Origin: Candidatus Ryanbacteria bacterium CG10_big_fil_rev_8_21_14_0_10_43_42
GTDB taxonomy: Bacteria > Patescibacteriota > Minisyncoccia > Ryanbacterales > 2-02-FULL-48-12
Direction: 5' to 3'
Length of the DNA: 64,000 nucleotides
Assembly (NCBI GenBank): GCA_002793915.1
Contig: PFEF01000006.1
Span: forward strand, 24,697-88,696
A program made the translations under genes and the position numbers. Under the pieces are notes generated by a model. That model saw only the letters and a list, made by a program, of their open reading frames with translations, was not told where the DNA came from and searched no databases. Numbering within the stretch: position 1 is the first letter of the stretch; each line of letters begins with the position of its first letter. Positions 9,033 through 52,127 of the stretch are shown here, one piece after another.

Positions 9033-9461
9033 TCAATCTCTGTTTTTGTGTCCGCCATGTTTTTTTGCCGGACATTTGCATCCATGCGGCTTTATAAAAT
9101 CATCAAAGTATTCTTCGCCATAATCATAGGTGATTTCCTCACCGGGTTTAATGGTGCGTGTGGCGAAAATAAGGATACGCCCGCCACGTTCATCTGTTTC
9201 GCAATTAGGCTTGCAGGCATGGTTAATATACCGAGCCAAGTGTTTATGGTCTTTTGCGTCTAGTGTCCATTTGGTGTTTATGGTAAAAAGATATTTTCCG
9301 CCTCGTCTATCTGCTTCCGCGTCGGAAATTTTTTCTCCCGTATATTCAATAACAAAATCCCCTTTCTTAAATTCCCGTTTTGTAAACAAAGCGAGTCCTG
9401 CACCGGGTTTTGCACGCTTTACACAAAACCAATCCTTATGGGTTGTATATTTTTGTGACAT
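9033..9461 (-). CDS. SET-domain protein lysine methyltransferase
   Basis: ARYINHACKPNC (NHxCxPN SET motif), GEEITYDYG (post-catalytic ELxxDY-like), C-terminal CKCPAKKH post-SET Cys cluster. 142 aa. Confidence 0.85.
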   Translation of the reverse strand: MSQKYTTHKDWFCVKRAKPGAGLALFTKREFKKGDFVIEYTGEKISDAEADRRGGKYLFTINTKWTLDAKDHKHLARYINHACKPNCETDERGGRILIFATRTIKPGEEITYDYGEEYFDDFIKPHGCKCPAKKHGGHKNRD

Positions 9462-42908: not shown

Positions 42909-43631
42909 ATGCAAGAATCTCACAATCCGTATGTCATTCCTCTCTCCATTATTGTCGCCGGTGTTCTCATTGCAGGAGCCATTATGTATGCCGGAGACGG
43001 GGGTGGTTTTGTGGCACAAACGGATACAACAAACCCAAAAGACGGTACGGAAAGTGGTAATGAACAAGCTGTTACGGGTGATGTAAAATCCGTTACGGGA
43101 GAAGATCATATTTTAGGCAATCCGGACGCACCGATAAAATTGGTGGAATATTCGGATTTGGAGTGTCCGTTTTGTTCACGATTCCACGCCACCATGAAGC
43201 AGGTAATGGATGAATATGGAAAAGATGGGCAAGTGGCATGGGTATATCGCCATTTTCCGCTATCACAAATTCACCCATCGGCAAATGAGGCGGCACAGGC
43301 AAGTGAGTGTGCGAATGAGCTGGGAGGAAATGATGGATTTTGGGCGTATATCGATGAAGTATTTTTGCGCCAGGATCAGGGACTTTCCACGTCAATGCTT
43401 CTAGCTGTTGCCGAGGATATAGGACTTGATAGACCGGCATTTGAATCATGCCTTAGCTCAGGAACATATGCAGAAAGTGTTCAGCGGTCATTTGAAGATG
43501 CGCGTACGGCTGGCGGTACGGGTACACCATATACGGTAGTGGTTGTTGATGGCGATACATTTACGCCAATCAATGGTGCTCTTCCGTTTGCGCAGGTATC
43601 ATCCGTCATAGAAAGTGCATTGGCAAGATAA
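42909..43631 (+). CDS. DsbA-like thiol:disulfide oxidoreductase, membrane-anchored
   Basis: N-terminal TM, LECPFCSRFH (CPFC active site), thioredoxin fold. Confidence 0.8.
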   Translation: MQESHNPYVIPLSIIVAGVLIAGAIMYAGDGGGFVAQTDTTNPKDGTESGNEQAVTGDVKSVTGEDHILGNPDAPIKLVEYSDLECPFCSRFHATMKQVMDEYGKDGQVAWVYRHFPLSQIHPSANEAAQASECANELGGNDGFWAYIDEVFLRQDQGLSTSMLLAVAEDIGLDRPAFESCLSSGTYAESVQRSFEDARTAGGTGTPYTVVVVDGDTFTPINGALPFAQVSSVIESALAR

Positions 43632-43655
43632 TCTTTATTTTTTCCGGTAATGCAT

Positions 43656-43688
43656 AAAAAAGCCGAAGCATGGCATGCTTCGGCTTTT
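43656..43688. terminator. bidirectional terminator between the dsbA-like gene (+) and the NusG-paralog gene (-)
   Basis: aaaaaagccgaagcatggcatgcttcggctttt. Confidence 0.8.
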
Positions 43689-43690
43689 AG

Positions 43691-44185
43691 CTATATCTCT
43701 GCGAGATTATGCTCGGGTATATTCACGCGAATTTTTTTTCCGATTAAATTTATCAAAATGGCCATGTAATCGTAAGGAGAGTTCTTTTTATTTTTTACTC
43801 TTTCAATTACCTCTCCTATAATATTCTTAAAAAGACCATCGACAACAAGAACATTTCCCGACCACTGCTTCTCAAGATCTATTATTCCGCCAGTTTCTCG
43901 CTCCTTGAGTTCGGTAATGATAAGTTTATCAATGGGCAGAATCTCACCGGTCGTTCCCACTATATATTTTACGCCTGGTACATTGTTTGTGGTGTGTATG
44001 TGTTCTTTATTAATACACACAAATAGATATTGCGGAAAGAGAGGGGTTTTTATACGTCCTTTTCTTTGTATCTTTTGATATCGCATGGGAAGGTAGATAT
44101 CATCTTTAGGAAATATGCTTTCCAAATAACTCTTTACGGAACGTTCTTTTGCCGCATTGGTCATTACCACATACCATTCCTTCAT
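43691..44185 (-). CDS. NusG-family paralog (NGN + KOW; RfaH/UpxY/LoaP-like specialised antiterminator)
   Basis: MKEWYVVMTNAAKERSVKSYLES (NGN start), PQYLFVCI, C-terminal KOW (GNVLVVDGLFKNIIGEVIERV). 164 aa. Monocistronic on the minus strand, ending at a bidirectional terminator. Confidence 0.8.
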   Translation of the reverse strand: MKEWYVVMTNAAKERSVKSYLESIFPKDDIYLPMRYQKIQRKGRIKTPLFPQYLFVCINKEHIHTTNNVPGVKYIVGTTGEILPIDKLIITELKERETGGIIDLEKQWSGNVLVVDGLFKNIIGEVIERVKNKKNSPYDYMAILINLIGKKIRVNIPEHNLAEI

Positions 44186-44307
44186 ATAGCACCTCTCAAA
44201 TATATTCTGTAAACATTAATGACATAAAAATATATAAAAGTCAATAGTTTTATTGTTGCTGAAATAGTATGCCATAATTTATTTAAAAGAACTATCCATA
44301 AGCTATG

Positions 44308-44336
44308 TTGACGTAAATAAGTTCATTTGCTAGAAT
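44308..44336 (+). promoter_or_regulatory. sigma70-like promoter TTGACG-17-TAGAAT driving the DAHPS leader
   Basis: Consensus-quality hexamers, ~270 nt upstream of the Trp-rich uORF. Confidence 0.55.
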
Positions 44337-44503
44337 GGTTGGTAATGAATAGATTCGTGAACCAGTCTAAAAACTTTTTCTCCTTTTGGGGATGGTTTTT
44401 TGCCTTTATGAGGCGGACTGGTTTTAGGAATGTGATGTAATATAAACTCACAATACATGCTAAATACCAGTCCTGTCCAAGCAGGAATTTTTTGTGCTTT
44501 AAC

Positions 44504-44551
44504 GGCTCATAATCTTTTTATAAATTTTTTAATATAAAAAGGTTATGAGCC
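44504..44551. repeat. 19-bp near-perfect AT-rich inverted repeat (hairpin/palindrome) in the DAHPS leader
   Basis: ggctcataatctttttata - aattttttaa - tataaaaaggttatgagcc (18/19 complementary). Confidence 0.6.
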
Positions 44552-44607
44552 CTATAGAGCATATTTATAGGAAAGTTCTTTAAAAAAGGAATAGGGAGGA
44601 ACGAGTT

Positions 44608-44721
44608 ATGTGGTTCGAAGATCAGGAAGAATGGTGGCGCAACGCATATACGCCATTGTATAGTCCGAAAAAAAACAACGAAGACCATGAAGATCAAGAT
44701 GGTAAAAATCTTGCATGGTAA
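44608..44721 (+). CDS. upstream ORF / candidate leader peptide (37 aa, Trp-rich)
   Basis: SD gggaggaacgagttATG. MWFEDQEEWWRNAYTPLYSPKKNNEDHEDQDGKNLAW (4 Trp including tandem WW). Ends 27 nt before the DAHP synthase start. Confidence 0.35.
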   Translation: MWFEDQEEWWRNAYTPLYSPKKNNEDHEDQDGKNLAW

Positions 44722-44748
44722 GAGAAGTACATCAAGAGGAGGAATAGT

Positions 44749-45882
44749 ATGCTTGTTAAGATGTATGGACATGCATCGTCGTCGGAAATTACGGCAATCG
44801 AGGAAAAGCTGCACGGTTTGGGGTATACAACCGGCAAAATGGTCGGTGAGGAAATCACCCTCATTGGTGTCTACGGCGATATCACCCGGCTGCCAACTGG
44901 CGAGATTCAAGAGATGGCTGGTGTAGACCGCCTGATCCCAATCTCGCGCGCCTATAAACGGGTCGCCCAAAAAGGGGTGCCCGGAGCACTTATCCATCAA
45001 ACGGTTCGCATTGGCAGAGTTGAAGTGGGCGGCGATGCATTGAGTATAATCGCCGGTCCTTGTTCGGTTGAGAGTGAGGCCCAGATTATGGAAGCGGCAT
45101 TTTTTGTTAAAGAGTCGGGAGCAAAAGCGCTTCGGGGTGGAGTGGTAAAATATCGCTCAAGTCCATACAGTGGTTGGGAAGGCATTGGTTCAAGCTCTGA
45201 AGAAGCCCTGCGGAATGGCTTACGGCTGATTGTGAAAGCCGGGCGTGCCTTTGATCTGCCAACCGTTGTTGAGGTGCTGGATGCGGCTGATGTGTCGATC
45301 TATGAAGATATGGGGGTGGACTGTCTGCAAGTTGGCGAACCGAACGCCAAAAACCAGTCTCTGCTCAATCGTCTACGTGACACCCAGCTCCCGGTCATCC
45401 ACAAACGCGGTAATTCCTTAGATATCGAAGCGTATCTCTTGTGGGTTGAACGCGTTATGGCAGCGGGCAAAGAAAATGTCATCCTCTGTGAGCGGGGGAT
45501 TGTGAGTTCAAATAAATATACCCGCAATACGCTGGATATGGGTGGTATTGCCGCATTTCATTATCAGCTGTCGTGTTTGCCTGTGGCTATTGATGCCTCG
45601 CATGGCAGTGGTATTCGTGATCTGGTCCATCCGCTAACCTTGGCTGGAATTATGGCCGGTGCCTCAGTTGTTCTCGTTGAATCCCACCCCAATCCGCTGA
45701 TTGCCAAGTCGGATGGATTTCAAGGCTTATTTCCCGAACAGCTCTCCCGCTTAGTCGCTGCCTGCCAGCAGGTGTGGGAACTTCGTAAGCGCATCGAGCC
45801 CTTGTACGTCCCGAGTGCACTACTTGAACAGCAGTATGAAGAGCGGATTGGCCATGATAAAAAACGGTTCTTCGATGTTTAA
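44749..45882 (+). CDS. 3-deoxy-7-phosphoheptulonate (DAHP) synthase, type I-beta with N-terminal ferredoxin-like regulatory domain
   Basis: SIIAGPCSVES, KYRSSPYS, ILCERGI, DASHGSG match I-beta DAHPS/KDO8PS. N-terminal ~65 aa regulatory domain as in Thermotoga DAHPS. Visibly higher G+C and CTG/GCC/GGC/ATC codon preference than neighbours. Confidence 0.9.
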   Translation: MLVKMYGHASSSEITAIEEKLHGLGYTTGKMVGEEITLIGVYGDITRLPTGEIQEMAGVDRLIPISRAYKRVAQKGVPGALIHQTVRIGRVEVGGDALSIIAGPCSVESEAQIMEAAFFVKESGAKALRGGVVKYRSSPYSGWEGIGSSSEEALRNGLRLIVKAGRAFDLPTVVEVLDAADVSIYEDMGVDCLQVGEPNAKNQSLLNRLRDTQLPVIHKRGNSLDIEAYLLWVERVMAAGKENVILCERGIVSSNKYTRNTLDMGGIAAFHYQLSCLPVAIDASHGSGIRDLVHPLTLAGIMAGASVVLVESHPNPLIAKSDGFQGLFPEQLSRLVAACQQVWELRKRIEPLYVPSALLEQQYEERIGHDKKRFFDV

Positions 45883-45893
45883 AAAGGAGGAAT

Positions 45894-46109
45894 ATGGCCG
45901 TGCACTATGATAAAAATGGATTTCCGTGTAATGGCAGATTGAAAAAGATATGCTCTGCATTAAGTTATTGTTGTACATGCAAAATGAGCATTATAAACGC
46001 GGTGCTCTTTGTACTTTCTCCGGAGCGCATATTGTTCCTTAAAATGCGCAGAGAAATTTGTAATTCTTTCCACGAAAACGGCTCTTTGGATTTAGGAGCC
46101 ATTTGTTAA
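45894..46109 (+). CDS. small Cys-rich ORF (71 aa) co-transcribed with DAHP synthase
   Basis: SD aaaaaggaggaatATG right after the DAHPS stop. 7 Cys (CNGRLKKICSALSYCCTCK...). Terminator at 46115-46147. AT-rich, unlike the DAHPS gene. Confidence 0.4.
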   Translation: MAVHYDKNGFPCNGRLKKICSALSYCCTCKMSIINAVLFVLSPERILFLKMRREICNSFHENGSLDLGAIC

Positions 46110-46114
46110 GAAGG

Positions 46115-46147
46115 TAAGGGGGTTATTAAATAATAACCCCTTTTTTC
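46115..46147 (+). terminator. rho-independent terminator ending the DAHPS transcription unit
   Basis: aagggggttattaaataataaccccttttttc: 9-bp stem + U-run. Confidence 0.75.
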
Positions 46148-46472
46148 TTAAAAACTTACACTATACCGTTATTAACAGCCTTTATTGACAAAAGATCGTT
46201 TTTTGTTAGCATGAAGGAATGTTAAAGGGAGATAATATTTCCGATACGAAAAAGACCGCGCTTCTCTTTGGAGATGTAATTATGTGCCTTACGAAAAGGT
46301 AGCAGAGTTTGTTTTAAATGATTTATAGTAACAAGCTCTGCTTCACGGCAGAGTATTTTTGTATAATGTATGGATTGTTTGTGGTTTGCGATGTGTCTGC
46401 TTGATAGTGGGCATATGAAGATCATAAGCCGGCTCGTTGACAATTTAAACTCTTATAGGGAGGAGGTTTAGT

Positions 46473-46664
46473 ATGCCCAAGAATAGAAAAGATGAAGATT
46501 CTCATCTGGTGCACGGAGGTGACCCGTTTGTCATTACTCCGGTAATGGGAGATACATATGATAGAGCGGAGATTGAAGAAAATCCTCATCTTGAGGATAA
46601 CTTACGCCGCTTAGAGAAAGAGCGTAAAAAGTTACGAAGGGAGGCGAGTAGTCATGGAAAATAA
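46473..46664 (+). CDS. hypothetical protein A (63 aa, acidic N-terminus + basic coiled-coil tail)
   Basis: Strong SD tatagggaggaggtttagtATG. ...LVHGGDPFVITPVMGDTYDRAEIEENPHLEDNLRRLEKERKKLRREA. Overlaps ORF B by 11 nt. Confidence 0.5.
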   Translation: MPKNRKDEDSHLVHGGDPFVITPVMGDTYDRAEIEENPHLEDNLRRLEKERKKLRREASSHGK

Positions 46665-47106
46665 TCTTTCTGATCTTTTACAGCGTGTGGTGGAAGAGTG
46701 TTCTCAAGATATGGCAGACGCAAACCAACGGCATAAAGAGCGTCAGGATAAGAGAGTATGTTTTGTTTATACAAATTGGAGTGTTGATAGAGCAAATGGG
46801 ATAGAGGTGGTGATAGCGAGTGTGGGCATGATTATCAACGGAGTGCGATATGAGGGGATGGCAACTTCTTTTGATGCTGTTCGGCCGGTAAGAGATGTCT
46901 TAATTGAGTCCATTTTATTGGCTGCTTTTAAATCAGATATTATAGCGGGAGAGAATATTCCTTCATTTAAAAGCTGTTTTCAGTCGGGAGTTGTGACACT
47001 TTTTGTGGAGGATGATTCATTTTCTGTTGAAGTTTCCGATGAGCGCGATGACCTTGCTTCTATGGAGGTTGCACGACGATATATTGCTTCACGATTGCCA
47101 TCGTGA
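46654..47106 (+). CDS. hypothetical protein B (150 aa)
   Basis: SD gaagggaggcgagtagtcATG; translationally coupled to A. No family recognised. Confidence 0.55.
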   Translation: MENNLSDLLQRVVEECSQDMADANQRHKERQDKRVCFVYTNWSVDRANGIEVVIASVGMIINGVRYEGMATSFDAVRPVRDVLIESILLAAFKSDIIAGENIPSFKSCFQSGVVTLFVEDDSFSVEVSDERDDLASMEVARRYIASRLPS

Positions 47107-47158
47107 AGATTTATGGGGATGCTTACACGCACCCCCATTTTCTAAGGAGGAGTGCGAT

Positions 47159-47524
47159 ATGCTCGATATGGTATTTAAACTACGTCAAGAAAATGAGCGC
47201 GTATATATGGAAATTACGCTTAAGATGAACGACATTTCGGCAACGGAAATATACGAAGGTGATGATTCTTCGTGTCGGCTTGAGGAGAGAGCGGTGACGC
47301 TTATGTTGCAGGCGGCTCAAACGATCGGGATTATGCCACAAACTCAGTTTTCTGTTTCTGTAACGGGAGGGACGGAAGTTCGGAACGGTGTTTTGGTAAC
47401 GATACATGCTGAAAGGAAAATGACGGGATTCACGGATTGTGTTTATAGCACACCGTTCACAGCGGCGCAGGCAACAAAAGATATTCTTGAGCAATTACAG
47501 AATAACGAAGTTAAAGCGGCGTAG
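47159..47524 (+). CDS. hypothetical protein C (121 aa), possible distant paralog of B
   Basis: SD taaggaggagtgcgatATG. ORF-track start 47003 lacks an SD and overlaps B. Shares a ...TGG.EV.NG.L... beta-hairpin-like motif with B. 12-bp-stem terminator follows. Confidence 0.55.
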   Translation: MLDMVFKLRQENERVYMEITLKMNDISATEIYEGDDSSCRLEERAVTLMLQAAQTIGIMPQTQFSVSVTGGTEVRNGVLVTIHAERKMTGFTDCVYSTPFTAAQATKDILEQLQNNEVKAA

Positions 47525-47529
47525 ATGTA

Positions 47530-47569
47530 AACCCCAGAATTTCTATTGGAAATTTTGGGGTTCTTTTTT
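47530..47569 (+). terminator. rho-independent terminator after small ORFs A-B-C
   Basis: aaccccagaatttctattggaaattttggggttctttttt: 12-bp stem (one G-U) + U-run. Confidence 0.8.
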
Positions 47570-47638
47570 AAGAAGATTGATTTTTAGTTTACATGGCATT
47601 ATAGTGGAACGAAGATTACCTGATAAGGAGGAGAATGT

Positions 47639-47965
47639 ATGCAAGGAGTATTTGTTATGATTACATACATTCCGAAAAGGGCACTTGATGAAGCATTGTC
47701 GCGAGAGGGTGAAGACCCTCCTACGCAAGAAGAGGCTCTTTCGTTTTTACGGAAGGTTATGTCGTTTAGGGAAATCCCTTCGATTCTGAATAACCCTCCC
47801 TTAATCGGACGTCTTCTGGACACATTTTATGGGAGACATGCCCGTGCCGGTAATGCTTTTGAAAGGATGTCAATTGTCGAACGAGTGAGAGGTGAAAAAT
47901 TGGAGATTACAGGAAAGAGGGTTAGGGAAAAAAATAAGAAAAAAGAAATACAAAGACGCGTATAA
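47639..47965 (+). CDS. hypothetical protein D (108 aa), basic C-terminus
   Basis: SD taaggaggagaatgtATG; own terminator at 47964-47988. C-terminal RVRGEKLEITGKRVREKNKKKEIQRRV. Confidence 0.5.
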   Translation: MQGVFVMITYIPKRALDEALSREGEDPPTQEEALSFLRKVMSFREIPSILNNPPLIGRLLDTFYGRHARAGNAFERMSIVERVRGEKLEITGKRVREKNKKKEIQRRV

Positions 47966-47988
47966 GAGCATTACGCTCTTTTTTTTGT
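47964..47988 (+). terminator. rho-independent terminator after ORF D
   Basis: agagcattacgctct + tttttttt. Confidence 0.65.
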
Positions 47989-48040
47989 CTTCATTATACA
48001 TCCGCTTTCCACTTTTTACGCACTGATTTATACTGGGGAA

Positions 48041-49687
48041 ATGACCAGAAGTGAACTTCTTCAAAAATTAAAAGAAAAACGAAAGGAGATTGCCGAGCGT
48101 GAAGGCAAGGAGCTTTTTATGGTATTTCAAAATAAAGCTCTGGAAGAAACAGTAAAAGCAATGCCGCAAACACGGGAAGATTTAAAATTGGTAAAAGGAT
48201 GGGGAAAGGTAAAAATATCACGGTATGGAGACGAAATTCTTTCTATTTTCAAGCAGGGAAACGGGAAACATGAGGATACTTATGCAACAGGCGGATTATT
48301 TAATAATCCAATACCTGCCGCCGAATCTCCCTCGGGCGGAGAAGGCAAGCAGTCTCATGATAACGCCGTATTATCGGTTTCGGAATTTATCGAAGTTGTT
48401 AATATTACGCTTTCACGATTAGGTTTGGTGCGTGTGCAGGGAGAAATAAGCGAGATGCAGATGCGGGGAGCGGCGGTATATTTTACGTTAAAAGATACAT
48501 CGGGTGAGGATGCGATAGTAAAATGTTTACTTTGGAAATGGCAATTTGAACAGCAGTATGATTATTTGGAGGATGGTTTGGAAATTATTATAGAGGGAGT
48601 GCCGGATGTATTTGTAAAATATGGAACATTTAGCGTAAAGGTAAGTCGCGTAGAGCCGGTAGGGGAAGGTGCTCTTAGAAAAGCATTCGAAGCGCTTAAG
48701 AAAAAATTTGAAATGGCCGGATATTTTGATGAAGCGCGCAAGCGTCCGCTTCCGCGCATTATACAACGTATAGGAGTTGTTACTTCCGCTTCCGGAGAAG
48801 CAATTAATGATTTTAGGCGCAATATCGGAGACTATGGTTTGGAAATATGTATGGTAGATGTGCGCGTGGAAGGAGTATACGCCGAGGATTCCATCGTGAA
48901 AGGAATACAATGGTTAAATACTCATCATGCCGATTTGGACGTACTTGTTCTTATACGCGGAGGCGGTGGTCTTGAAAATTTGAAGGCATTTAATTCAGAG
49001 CGAGTTGCTGAAGCCGTTCTTGGTTCGCGTTTGCCGGTAATAACGGGTATTGGGCATGAGCGCGATGATACCATTGCGGGTTTTATAGCGGACATCAATT
49101 GCTCTACGCCAACAGCGGTTGCGGTGTATATTCGGCACATACGGGAAGATCTCATAGGGGAGGTAAATGAAAAAGTGGAACGGCTGATTCGTTTATTTGA
49201 TGTTATATACGAAACAGCACTGCGTTCATTGCATGAGCGGAAGACGGGACTTATTATTTCGTATACCCACATTCTTTCGCGGTATCGGCATGACATCGCA
49301 TCACATACGCGTGCCCTACAGACGGGGCTGTTTCAGATATTTAGCGGATTTCGTCTTTTAACGGAACAGTTTCGTTCATCATTTCACCGTTATGAATCTA
49401 TTTTACGGGAATATTATCGAACGGTAGAAATAAACGCCGTAAAAGGGGTTCGTATTCTTGAACGGAGTATGCAGGAATACGAAAAACGTATTTCTGTTAC
49501 CGAAACCGCGCTTGCTTCTCTGGATCCGGCGGCGCCTTTAAAGCGCGGATATAGTATTACATACGGATCTGACGGCCGCGTGCTCAAGAATGCAAAGAAT
49601 GTTACCATAGGGGAGAGAATCAGCGTACATTTGTACGAAGGGAATATTGGTGCGCGGATAGAAGAAAATATTCAGCCGGAAAAATAA
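48041..49687 (+). CDS. xseA: exodeoxyribonuclease VII large subunit with N-terminal HRDC-like domain
   Basis: Residues ~1-75 (LLQKLKEKRKEIAEREGKELFMVFQNKALEETVKAMPQTREDLKLVKGWGKVKISRYGDEILSIF) fit the HRDC pattern. OB fold and XseA catalytic core follow (VRVQGEIS..., IGVVTSASGEA, ITGIGHERD). Confidence 0.85.
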   Translation: MTRSELLQKLKEKRKEIAEREGKELFMVFQNKALEETVKAMPQTREDLKLVKGWGKVKISRYGDEILSIFKQGNGKHEDTYATGGLFNNPIPAAESPSGGEGKQSHDNAVLSVSEFIEVVNITLSRLGLVRVQGEISEMQMRGAAVYFTLKDTSGEDAIVKCLLWKWQFEQQYDYLEDGLEIIIEGVPDVFVKYGTFSVKVSRVEPVGEGALRKAFEALKKKFEMAGYFDEARKRPLPRIIQRIGVVTSASGEAINDFRRNIGDYGLEICMVDVRVEGVYAEDSIVKGIQWLNTHHADLDVLVLIRGGGGLENLKAFNSERVAEAVLGSRLPVITGIGHERDDTIAGFIADINCSTPTAVAVYIRHIREDLIGEVNEKVERLIRLFDVIYETALRSLHERKTGLIISYTHILSRYRHDIASHTRALQTGLFQIFSGFRLLTEQFRSSFHRYESILREYYRTVEINAVKGVRILERSMQEYEKRISVTETALASLDPAAPLKRGYSITYGSDGRVLKNAKNVTIGERISVHLYEGNIGARIEENIQPEK

Positions 49688-51756: not shown

Positions 51757-51772
51757 GACGGGGGAGTTGACG

Positions 51773-51808
51773 TACCTGCTTTTTTCGAGAAAAAAGCAGG
51801 TTTTTCTT
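51773..51808 (+). terminator. rho-independent terminator
   Basis: cctgcttttttcgagaaaaaagcagg + tttttc. Confidence 0.7.
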
Positions 51809-51830
51809 TGAAAGTGGAATTAAGAAGTTA

Positions 51831-51903
51831 TGTGGATAACATCTTCTTGACTTTATTATAAAAATCTGGTAACCTCTATATACAAGTTCGAAGGTGTGGA
51901 TAA
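51831..51903. promoter_or_regulatory. pair of perfect DnaA boxes (TGTGGATAA = complement of TTATCCACA) flanking an AT-rich tract
   Basis: Identical 9-mers at 51831-51839 and 51895-51903 in the same orientation. A third 7/9 match (ttattcact) lies at 51945-51953. Located in the 370-nt spacer upstream of rpoB. Confidence 0.4.
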
Positions 51904-52127
51904 CTCGTTTTTAATACTATTGCCACCTCGAAAAAACCACGGTATTATTCACTTGCAAGCTTAAGCTACGTGGGAATCTCTTCAATAAAAAATTGAAACG
52001 ACCAAGAACTCTGTCCATGAAGGGAGATAGGGTTTTTTGTCGCTTTTCTCTGTTTTATATTGACCTACAACTACTTTCATGTATGCCTATGAAAGAGGTG
52101 TAGTTTGCCCCACAGCATATAATTCAT

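Follow-up and report, generated by a model that had tools for sequence, protein, structure and literature searches.

The 4.3 kb that separate a dsbA-like gene from xseA in a metagenome-assembled genome of Candidatus Ryanbacteria, a Parcubacteria member of the candidate phyla radiation (CPR), probably represent a lineage-specific filling of a variable slot, a mosaic of separate units and not one demonstrable system. The stretch lies within the 64 kb of DNA analysed here as a whole (the window) and carries genes for a NusG-family protein and a DAHP synthase, together with four small open reading frames (ORFs A to D). Its accessory nature is supported, and its acquired nature has been shown only for the DAHP synthase gene. 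The sequence-only reading of this DNA had described the whole as looking like an acquired or accessory module and as the best candidate for an undescribed system. The accessory part of that description stands, given that the same slot differs in relatives, and the acquired part stands for the DAHP synthase gene alone, the NusG-family gene and ORFs A to D having a native GC content at third codon positions (GC3). A single system is not supported: the parts differ in composition and history, they form four or more transcription units, and neither island hallmarks nor defence-system matches were found. The identifiable parts belong to known kinds, and nothing in the stretch amounts to a new multi-gene system.

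The slot between dsbA and xseA

The genes and intergenic elements of the slot are as follows, in the coordinates of the window.

42909-43631, dsbA-like gene, convergent with the NusG-family gene
43658-43688, between the dsbA-like and NusG-family genes, perfect inverted repeat of 15+15 nt, 100% complementary, 1 nt between the arms
43691-44185, minus strand, gene for an RfaH-like NusG-family protein of 164 aa (Pfam NusG), monocistronic and divergent from the DAHP synthase unit
44186-44748, plus strand, control region between the divergent genes, with the long, structured 5' leader of the DAHP synthase gene, 563 nt
44749-45882, plus strand, DAHP synthase of type I-beta, 377 aa, with an N-terminal ferredoxin-like regulatory domain (Pfam, NCBIfam)
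45894-46109, plus strand, doubtful Cys-rich ORF of 71 codons with 7 cysteines and an AGGAGG ribosome-binding site, directly after the DAHP synthase gene
46116-46143, plus strand, intrinsic-terminator-like hairpin of 12 pairs followed by a T-run, ending the DAHP synthase unit
46473-46664, plus strand, ORF A, 63 aa, acidic in its N-terminal half and ending in a basic helical tail, overlapping ORF B by 11 nt
46654-47106, plus strand, ORF B, 150 aa, absent from the second known version of the operon (contig L010, below)
47159-47524, plus strand, ORF C, 121 aa, two-member family, predicted to form two beta-beta-beta-alpha units
47530-47562, plus strand, strong terminator-like hairpin of 15 pairs followed by a T-run, ending the A-B-C operon
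47639-47965, plus strand, ORF D, 108 aa, with its own promoter-like site (47577-47605) and terminator-like hairpin (47964-47980)
48041-49687, xseA

The window shares with two relatives a backbone that runs from ROK...SIMPL...PG_binding-truB-dsbA on one side of the slot to xseA-xseB...rpoBC on the other. In both relatives truB-dsbA is followed by two or three unrelated small ORFs of no family, over 0.7-1.3 kb, and then by xseA-xseB...rpoB-rpoC, and no tblastn match to any of the six genes of the stretch was found in the relatives' loci. Because the relatives keep the backbone without these genes, the interval between dsbA and xseA can be regarded as a variable slot and its 4.3 kb in the window as lineage-specific. 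Thus the truB-dsbA...xseA-xseB block, which the sequence-only reading had proposed to compare, is retained in two relatives as far as its backbone goes, with unrelated small ORFs in the slot itself. A third relative has a different context upstream of xseA. Among the nearest relatives, amino-acid identity is 53% at best for XseA and 51-58% for TruB and the DsbA-like protein. A scan of the genome collection with XseA, made for synteny, returned no relatives.

In related Ryanbacteria the slot (L004 9384-9930, L005 9027-9887) holds two or three family-less ORFs of 66-96 aa that are unrelated to ORFs A to D. It seems to collect small lineage-specific genes.

The stretch is not a recognisable mobile island. 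No tRNA gene and no convincing flanking repeats were found in it, although the sequence-only reading had suggested a search for att sites or direct repeats, and no integrase or transposase families occur among its called genes. Scans of viral contigs with the NusG-family protein, ORF C, ORF D, an alignment of the ORF C family and a leader pattern gave no relatives, and the sole match to the PADLOC defence models was noise (E 0.029). The NusG-family gene, the DAHP synthase gene and ORFs A to D were nowhere else seen together. Three further public assemblies, made from different samples, contain the stretch without a single base difference; all other copies being identical, there are no population variants with which to test selection.

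Long spacers had been reported for this stretch, and its two, 44186-44748 (563 nt) and 45883-46472 (590 nt), are indeed the longest of the 61 intergenic spacers between 3 and 59 kb of the window (median 52 nt, 90th percentile 127 nt). The second measures 330 nt when counted from the terminator at 46116-46143. Their description as non-coding needs amending, the 563-nt spacer holding an ORF of 37 codons and the 590-nt spacer the doubtful ORF of 71 codons. Terminator-like sites number 17 in the region against 5.4±1.8 in shuffled sequence, an excess of about threefold, and each transcription unit has a terminator-like hairpin (46116-46143, 47530-47562 and 47964-47980); at least four transcription units can be counted in the stretch. 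The inverted repeat at 43658-43688 looks like a bidirectional terminator.

The DAHP synthase gene

The product of 44749-45882 is, to judge from its sequence, an intact DAHP synthase distinct from KDO8P synthase. The domains PF00793 (DAHP_synth_1, 157.7 bits) and PF18152 (DAHP_snth_FXD, 44.9 bits) both score above their cut-offs, and models of DAHP synthase reach 227-295 bits compared with 60-75 bits for models of KDO8P synthase. The highest of these scores, 295.2 bits for NCBIfam PRK08673/NF006421, lies below the subfamily cut-off of 335. The protein is 80-94% identical to many proteins named 3-deoxy-7-phosphoheptulonate synthase by their sources.

The gene had been called compositionally foreign, and it is the sole strong outlier: its GC content of 0.516 and GC3 of 0.511 compare with a background of 0.435±0.021 and 0.382±0.030 in 39 genes (z = 3.9 for GC and 4.2 for GC3). 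The nearest proteins come from non-CPR bacteria and share 92-94% of their amino acids with it, compared with 50-58% identity between the flanking housekeeping proteins and their own nearest relatives. The contigs that encode two of these close relatives have a GC content of 54%, one of them reaching 2 Mb, with genes for SelB and BatA-D nearby; named relatives at 82-85% identity belong to Methylomirabilota, Binatia and Deltaproteobacteria. At the nucleotide level, identity to the nearest relatives is 85-86% and is confined to 44749-45846, that is from the ATG to 36-38 nt before the stop codon, with the flanks excluded. In a neighbour-joining tree the protein nests among non-CPR sequences. Together these comparisons of sequence and composition show a recent horizontal transfer from non-CPR bacteria, of the coding sequence alone.

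A second Ryanbacteria genome (RIFCSPHIGHO2_01; L007 10001-11128, also L008) encodes a DAHP synthase that is 82% identical, in another context, after glycosyl hydrolase genes. This copy has a GC3 of 0.68 in a genome of 45% GC and groups with a Methylomirabilota protein in the neighbour-joining tree. Because the two Ryanbacteria copies fall in different groups of the tree, they are, by this phylogenetic evidence, independent acquisitions. No other gene of the shikimate or aromatic pathway occurs in the 64 kb window.

Directly downstream, the Cys-rich ORF at 45894-46109 has a GC content at first codon positions of 0.347 against a background of 0.542, and its codon-position GC is unlike that of coding sequence. 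It is called as a gene by some assemblies only and has no match in Pfam, PHROGs, PADLOC or NCBIfam. A tblastn search of 45883-46184 for what might be left of a prephenate dehydratase gene gave no match.

The leader of the DAHP synthase gene

Upstream of the DAHP synthase gene, a consensus scan found a promoter-like site at 44308-44336 (TTGACG, 17 nt, TAGAAT, with TG). The RNA from 44340 to 44770 is predicted to fold at -130.4 kcal/mol (z = -6.9 against shuffles), and terminator-like hairpins lie at 44379-44402 and 44471-44495. An inverted repeat follows at 44504-44551, with 19 bp, 95% complementarity, a loop of 10 nt and no U-run on either strand; it might serve as an operator or as an RNA element. 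A dispersed repeat was considered for it and dismissed, the sequence being unique within the window. No Rfam family matches this leader, which is AT-rich, native and about 400 nt long, and as every other copy found is identical, comparison lends it no support. The last part of the leader contains a small ORF.

44608-44721, plus strand, upstream ORF of 37 codons, MWFEDQEEWWRNAYTPLYSPKKNNEDHEDQDGKNLAW, with a GGGAGG ribosome-binding site; one public assembly calls the gene

The ORF encodes four Trp (positions 2, 9, 10 and 37), one Phe and two Tyr, and 27 nt separate its stop codon from the downstream DAHP synthase start. On these features it is a tentative candidate for an aromatic leader peptide, possible and still doubtful. 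Two observations tell against that role. Of 361 random small ORFs with an ATG start in the window, 7 also have four Trp or more, which makes the Trp richness weakly unusual, and no hairpin with a U-run was found between 44608 and 44748, the terminator-like sites lying upstream of the ORF. The DAHP synthase coding sequence was placed behind a native structured leader, and the leader with its Trp/Phe/Tyr-rich ORF might regulate it, a suggestion for which the present signs are weak.

The A-B-C operon and its leader

ORFs A, B and C are preceded by a promoter and by a leader of about 260 nt, of which the 3' 183 nt (46290-46472) are conserved in a second copy. That copy lies on a metagenome contig of 1364 nt from the Joint Genome Institute (JGI), L010, which is described further below. 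The elements of the leader are the following.

46185-46212, plus strand, A-B-C promoter, TTGACA, 16 nt, TAGCAT, from a consensus scan and the alignment with L010
46290-46472, plus strand, conserved non-coding leader, candidate attenuator RNA, 67% nucleotide identity to L010 519-689
46301-46307, plus strand, 5' strand of the antiterminator, AGCAGAG, which can pair with the terminator 5' strand CUCUGCU (from reading the alignments)
46335-46354 (U-run to 46362), plus strand, terminator CUCUGCU/GGCAGAG followed by AUUUUUGU, invariant in both copies
46372-46430, plus strand, second domain, in which UGUUUGUG and AGAUCAUAAG form the outer stem around an inner hairpin (46393-46414), with the ribosome-binding site downstream

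The spacer of L010 aligns with that of the window from the promoter (TTGACA, 16 nt, TAGTAT in L010) to the start codon. The identity of the leaders has z = 20.8 against shuffles, compared with z = 0.1 for the coding sequence of ORF A against its counterpart and 5.3 for that of ORF C. Because the leader value exceeds both coding values, the non-coding leader is the most conserved part of the unit. The terminator hairpin and its U-run lie about 110 nt before the start codon.

All 28 of the predicted pairs are kept in both copies, with 2 compensatory and 8 one-sided changes (RNAalifold and pair counts); in the inner hairpin of the second domain, changes fall at 6 of 9 pairs and none is lost. From these pairings the most likely mechanism is transcription attenuation: the leader would fold either as a terminator or as a competing antiterminator, both of which can be read from the sequence, and a signal would choose between them. 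It counts against this mechanism that two copies only are available and that 128 of 500 shuffles reach the observed covariation, which is not significant. A conserved leader peptide was also considered and rejected: the short frames differ between the copies, and the substitutions fit base pairing and not coding.

Other searches with the leader gave nothing of the kind. Rfam returned no match at the gathering score and nothing relevant at E up to 5 over 43600-48100, neither the window nor the fetched loci contain the leader a second time, and the leader pattern TAACAANCTCTGCTNNNCGGCAGNGT had no matches in the genome collection. A metagenome scan with a pattern of the second domain gave 25 unrelated matches, from a collection that returned neither of the two known copies. 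Among them was a family of near-identical sequences unrelated to the leader, TGTTTGTGCTTCGAAATGATCAACTTAAGATAGCTAAGTTGTGATCATAAG, in many samples of one JGI project (Ga0126xxx); its members are L012, L014, L015, L018, L020-L022, L027-L029 and L034.

ORFs A to D

The sequence-only reading had found ORFs A to D operon-like and impossible to assign to a family, and both observations are borne out. All four have ATG starts and AGGAGG-type ribosome-binding sites, A and B share their 11-nt overlap, terminator-like hairpins follow, and the GC3 is native, with codon-position GC matching the background. None has a match in Pfam, PHROGs, PADLOC or NCBIfam. A placement of the four in ordinary housekeeping families, which would have spoken against an accessory nature, was not found: A, B and D have no homolog and C has one. 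ORF D is probably a separate orphan gene.

For ORF B, a word-index search found only ORF B itself, and the AlphaFold model made from the single sequence is of low confidence, with a predicted local distance difference test (pLDDT) of 52. Kinship of ORF B with ORF C as a paralog was examined and rejected (BLASTP E 0.6, hhalign probability 0.13); the sole hint of it is a similar order of secondary-structure elements in the low-confidence model of ORF B. Homology of ORF A to the 62-aa ORF of L010 was likewise rejected, the local alignment being no better than shuffles (p = 0.39).

ORF C has one homolog (P0245), 30% identical over its full length, among the 1.84 billion representatives of about 15 billion proteins that were searched by phmmer with A, B, C and D concatenated. 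It is encoded on L010, where the order is the 3' end of a prephenate dehydratase gene, a spacer of 300 nt, the 62-aa ORF, the ORF C homolog and a terminator-like hairpin with a T-run. The prephenate dehydratase (L010 1-387; Pfam PDT 6.4e-26) ends right after the PDT domain and has no ACT domain. Leader, small ORF and ORF C are the only part of the stretch that has been found twice, and the L010 version is without ORF B; the contig is too short to show ORF D, the NusG-family gene or the DAHP synthase gene. Thus both ORF C operons lie directly downstream of a gene for an aromatic enzyme, the DAHP synthase in the window and the ACT-less prephenate dehydratase on L010.

The AlphaFold model of ORF C, made from an alignment of the two sequences, has a pLDDT of 75.8 and a predicted template-modelling score (pTM) of 0.72. 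Its closest resemblance is to the regulatory, amino-acid-binding domain of citramalate/isopropylmalate synthase, at a template-modelling (TM) score of about 0.5. ORF C has no Pfam match, a search of PDB sequences with the two-member profile gave no match up to E 10, and a fold search against viral structures gave poor matches (TM ≤0.38). An AroH-type chorismate mutase, suggested by a VTGG-like motif, was also considered for ORF C and dismissed, since no PDB sequence matched and the top fold matches included no chorismate mutase. Because of the predicted amino-acid-binding fold and of the aromatic enzyme gene upstream in both instances, the favoured interpretation is that ORF C may be a small ligand-binding regulatory protein tied to aromatic amino-acid metabolism.

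The NusG-family protein

A NusG paralog had been placed at one edge of the stretch, and the protein encoded at 43691-44185 (NCBI tag COU90_02795) does belong to this family. Residues 2-90 match the NGN domain (PF02357, Pfam NusG) with 56 bits against a cut-off of 22.2 (E 5.8e-15). There is no separate Pfam match to a KOW domain; the RfaH model aligns residues 4-161 with its positions 1-158 of 159, and the C-terminal part aligns with the KOW domain of RfaH. The best solved structure by sequence is E. coli RfaH (residues 1-156 against 1-154, E 7e-7), a better match than that to NusG (1.5e-5), and an IHTT in the protein is aligned with the IHTT (HTT motif) of the NGN domain of E. coli RfaH. Scores for the curated families all fall below the cut-offs: 56.3 bits against 144.5 for RfaH (TIGR01955), 50 against 100 for UpxY (NF033644), 37 against 125 for LoaP (NF033641) and 36.5 against 135.7 for the housekeeping nusG (TIGR00922). 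Identity to annotated plasmid rfaH genes is 27-28%, the protein is a singleton cluster at 90% identity, and its gene is native in GC3 (0.364).

Some specialised NusG paralogs (LoaP, TaA, UpxY) are encoded beside their target operons (PMC7819879), and the targets of LoaP have leaders with an RNA hairpin and an intrinsic terminator, with further terminators inside the operon (PMC12691694). By analogy with RfaH, LoaP and UpxY, the NusG-family protein would most likely ride on RNA polymerase and suppress pausing or termination on few targets, and the neighbouring terminator-rich leaders are plausible targets of it. An ops element of the E. coli type was considered for the neighbouring leaders and rejected, its occurrence being at chance level: GGCGGTAGnnTG with up to two mismatches is found 43 times in the window against 37±6 by chance, and not at all in 44186-44748 or 46148-46472. 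Nor was an UNCG-loop hairpin visible in either leader when the sequences were read.

Weighing the alternatives

Could the parts nevertheless form one co-functional acquired module, in which the NusG paralog serves as the dedicated processive antiterminator of the DAHP synthase unit, of A-B-C and of D, reading through internal terminators in the manner of LoaP on the dfn and mln clusters? Several observations would suit such an arrangement: LoaP, TaA and UpxY adjoin their targets (PMC7819879), LoaP target leaders carry a hairpin and an intrinsic terminator with more terminators internally (PMC12691694), terminator-like hairpins reach about three times the number in shuffles with one in each unit, and the slot of the relatives is without any of the genes. 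However, the histories of the parts differ, the DAHP synthase coding sequence alone being foreign and recent, and the unit of leader, small ORF and ORF C recurs on L010 without ORF B. The protein scores below the LoaP, UpxY and RfaH cut-offs, the leaders have neither an UNCG-loop hairpin nor an ops site of the E. coli type, and no co-occurrence of the parts has been shown elsewhere. A single module is therefore an unlikely explanation. A little less likely still is that ORFs A to D are non-functional, either as fast-decaying or spurious frames in a slot that gathers junk or as remnants of a degraded mobile element or prophage. The lack of homologs of A, B and D among the 1.84 billion representatives, the other unrelated small ORFs in the slot of the relatives and the low confidence of the ORF B model would agree with this. 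Yet ORF C matches its homolog from end to end, promoter and leader are conserved along with it, its fold is predicted with confidence (pTM 0.72), all four ORFs have AGGAGG ribosome-binding sites and ATG starts, A and B overlap, and the codon-position GC of the four equals the background, unlike that of the ORF at 45894-46109; phage or plasmid relatives, an integrase, a tRNA gene and flanking repeats were not found. As for the DAHP synthase gene, a GC content of 0.516 in a contig of about 0.42 and best matches outside the CPR are also what an assembly or binning chimera would give, a higher-GC fragment having been joined to a CPR contig. This explanation has almost no probability left and can be ruled out because the same DNA, with the same junctions and identical in every base, is present in three other public assemblies that come from different samples. 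Moreover, the protein table places these proteins on an NCBI contig of 524 kb, the similarity to the donors is 86% and not 100% and covers the coding sequence only, and the flanks are native and AT-rich, with a proper ribosome-binding site.

A more ambitious interpretation would make the leader at 46290-46472 a new class of cis-regulatory RNA and ORF C with A, perhaps B, new trans-acting ligand-binding regulators of aromatic synthesis in the CPR; it seems improbable at present. Under it, one possibility is that ORF C exerts feedback control on enzymes such as the ACT-less prephenate dehydratase of L010; another, by analogy with TRAP, is that an aromatic amino acid makes ORF C bind its own leader; and the RfaH-like protein might possibly override the leader terminators. 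The preferred interpretation remains the mosaic of separate units in a variable slot, with attenuation in the A-B-C leader and a regulatory ORF C. Several points weigh against it or its parts. Synteny was compared with distant relatives, about 50% identical at the amino-acid level, and ORF C is linked to aromatic genes in two instances (n = 2). No homolog of ORFs A, B or D turned up among the representatives searched, which leaves ribosome-binding sites and codon-position composition as the evidence that they are real. Finally, there is no second NusG gene within the window.

Implications

Most amino-acid biosynthesis is generally said to be missing from CPR bacteria. That two Ryanbacteria lineages appear to have recently and independently gained the same type of DAHP synthase from large-genome neighbours is a concrete, datable case of a metabolic gene being gained. 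What role a lone first enzyme of the shikimate pathway has in a CPR cell is the question that it poses. The leader and ORF C constitute a small, testable candidate for an RNA-protein regulatory pair beside aromatic-pathway genes, and are the only lead with room to develop. As for the RfaH-like NusG protein, its presence in so small a genome would extend the range of the specialised NusG paralogs.

Other features of the window and its relatives

XseA (48041-49687) has an N-terminal HRDC domain (Pfam 6.4e-17). The same architecture is found in nearly all of the 120 best homologs listed, the named ones being from Patescibacteria (CPR); E. coli XseA is not known to have an HRDC domain. In Ryanbacteria RIFCSPHIGHO2_02 (L004 7390-8532), TruB is called as a fusion of 380 aa with an N-terminal NUDIX domain, and the two are separate genes in L005. 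A spacer of 371 nt (51757-52127) precedes rpoB in the window, and for the pair of small genes ahead of it (84 and 123 aa) no Pfam match is on record. A SET-domain protein of 142 aa is encoded at 9033-9461 on the minus strand.

Comparison with known systems

The DAHP synthase has the same two-domain architecture as the Thermotoga-type (I-beta) enzymes. Its closest non-CPR homologs are preceded by a classic attenuator (L006 7837-7925, L009 2142-2225), in which the leader peptides MTVCPLQLLPCPQFLFYFAP and MTACTPHLFICPQFGFFFAP are each followed by a GCCCC/GGGGC hairpin and a U-rich run. This arrangement resembles aroR-aroF of Corynebacterium glutamicum (PMC11802643). The donor-type attenuator was not carried over with the gene of the window: the leader found here is native, with its Trp-rich ORF of 37 codons and without a terminator after the ORF.

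The NusG-family protein is close in size to E. coli RfaH (164 aa compared with 162 aa) and aligns with it over the full length, including IHTT. The RfaH positions K10, H20, R23 and Q24, which we take to be ops-contacting, are N, Y, S and I in the window protein. As with LoaP and UpxY, the gene adjoins operons that have leaders with terminators; unlike RfaH, LoaP and UpxY, the protein falls below every curated cut-off and its host is a CPR bacterium.

The model of ORF C has the element order of the LeuA_dimer domain (PDB 3f6g, 3f6h, 3fig), with two beta-beta-beta-alpha units, and the domain carries isoleucine or leucine as its ligand in these structures. In contrast to LeuA_dimer, ORF C is a stand-alone protein of 121 aa and not a domain of an enzyme, at 8-19% identity and without sequence similarity.

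The A-B-C leader shares with riboswitches, T-boxes and protein-dependent attenuators a promoter, a long 5' leader, a hairpin with a U-run and an alternative pairing, here that of AGCAGAG. In comparison with described attenuators, its best-conserved part is the expression platform with a second hairpin domain downstream, and no aptamer is obvious. Both pairing elements are invariant in the two copies known.

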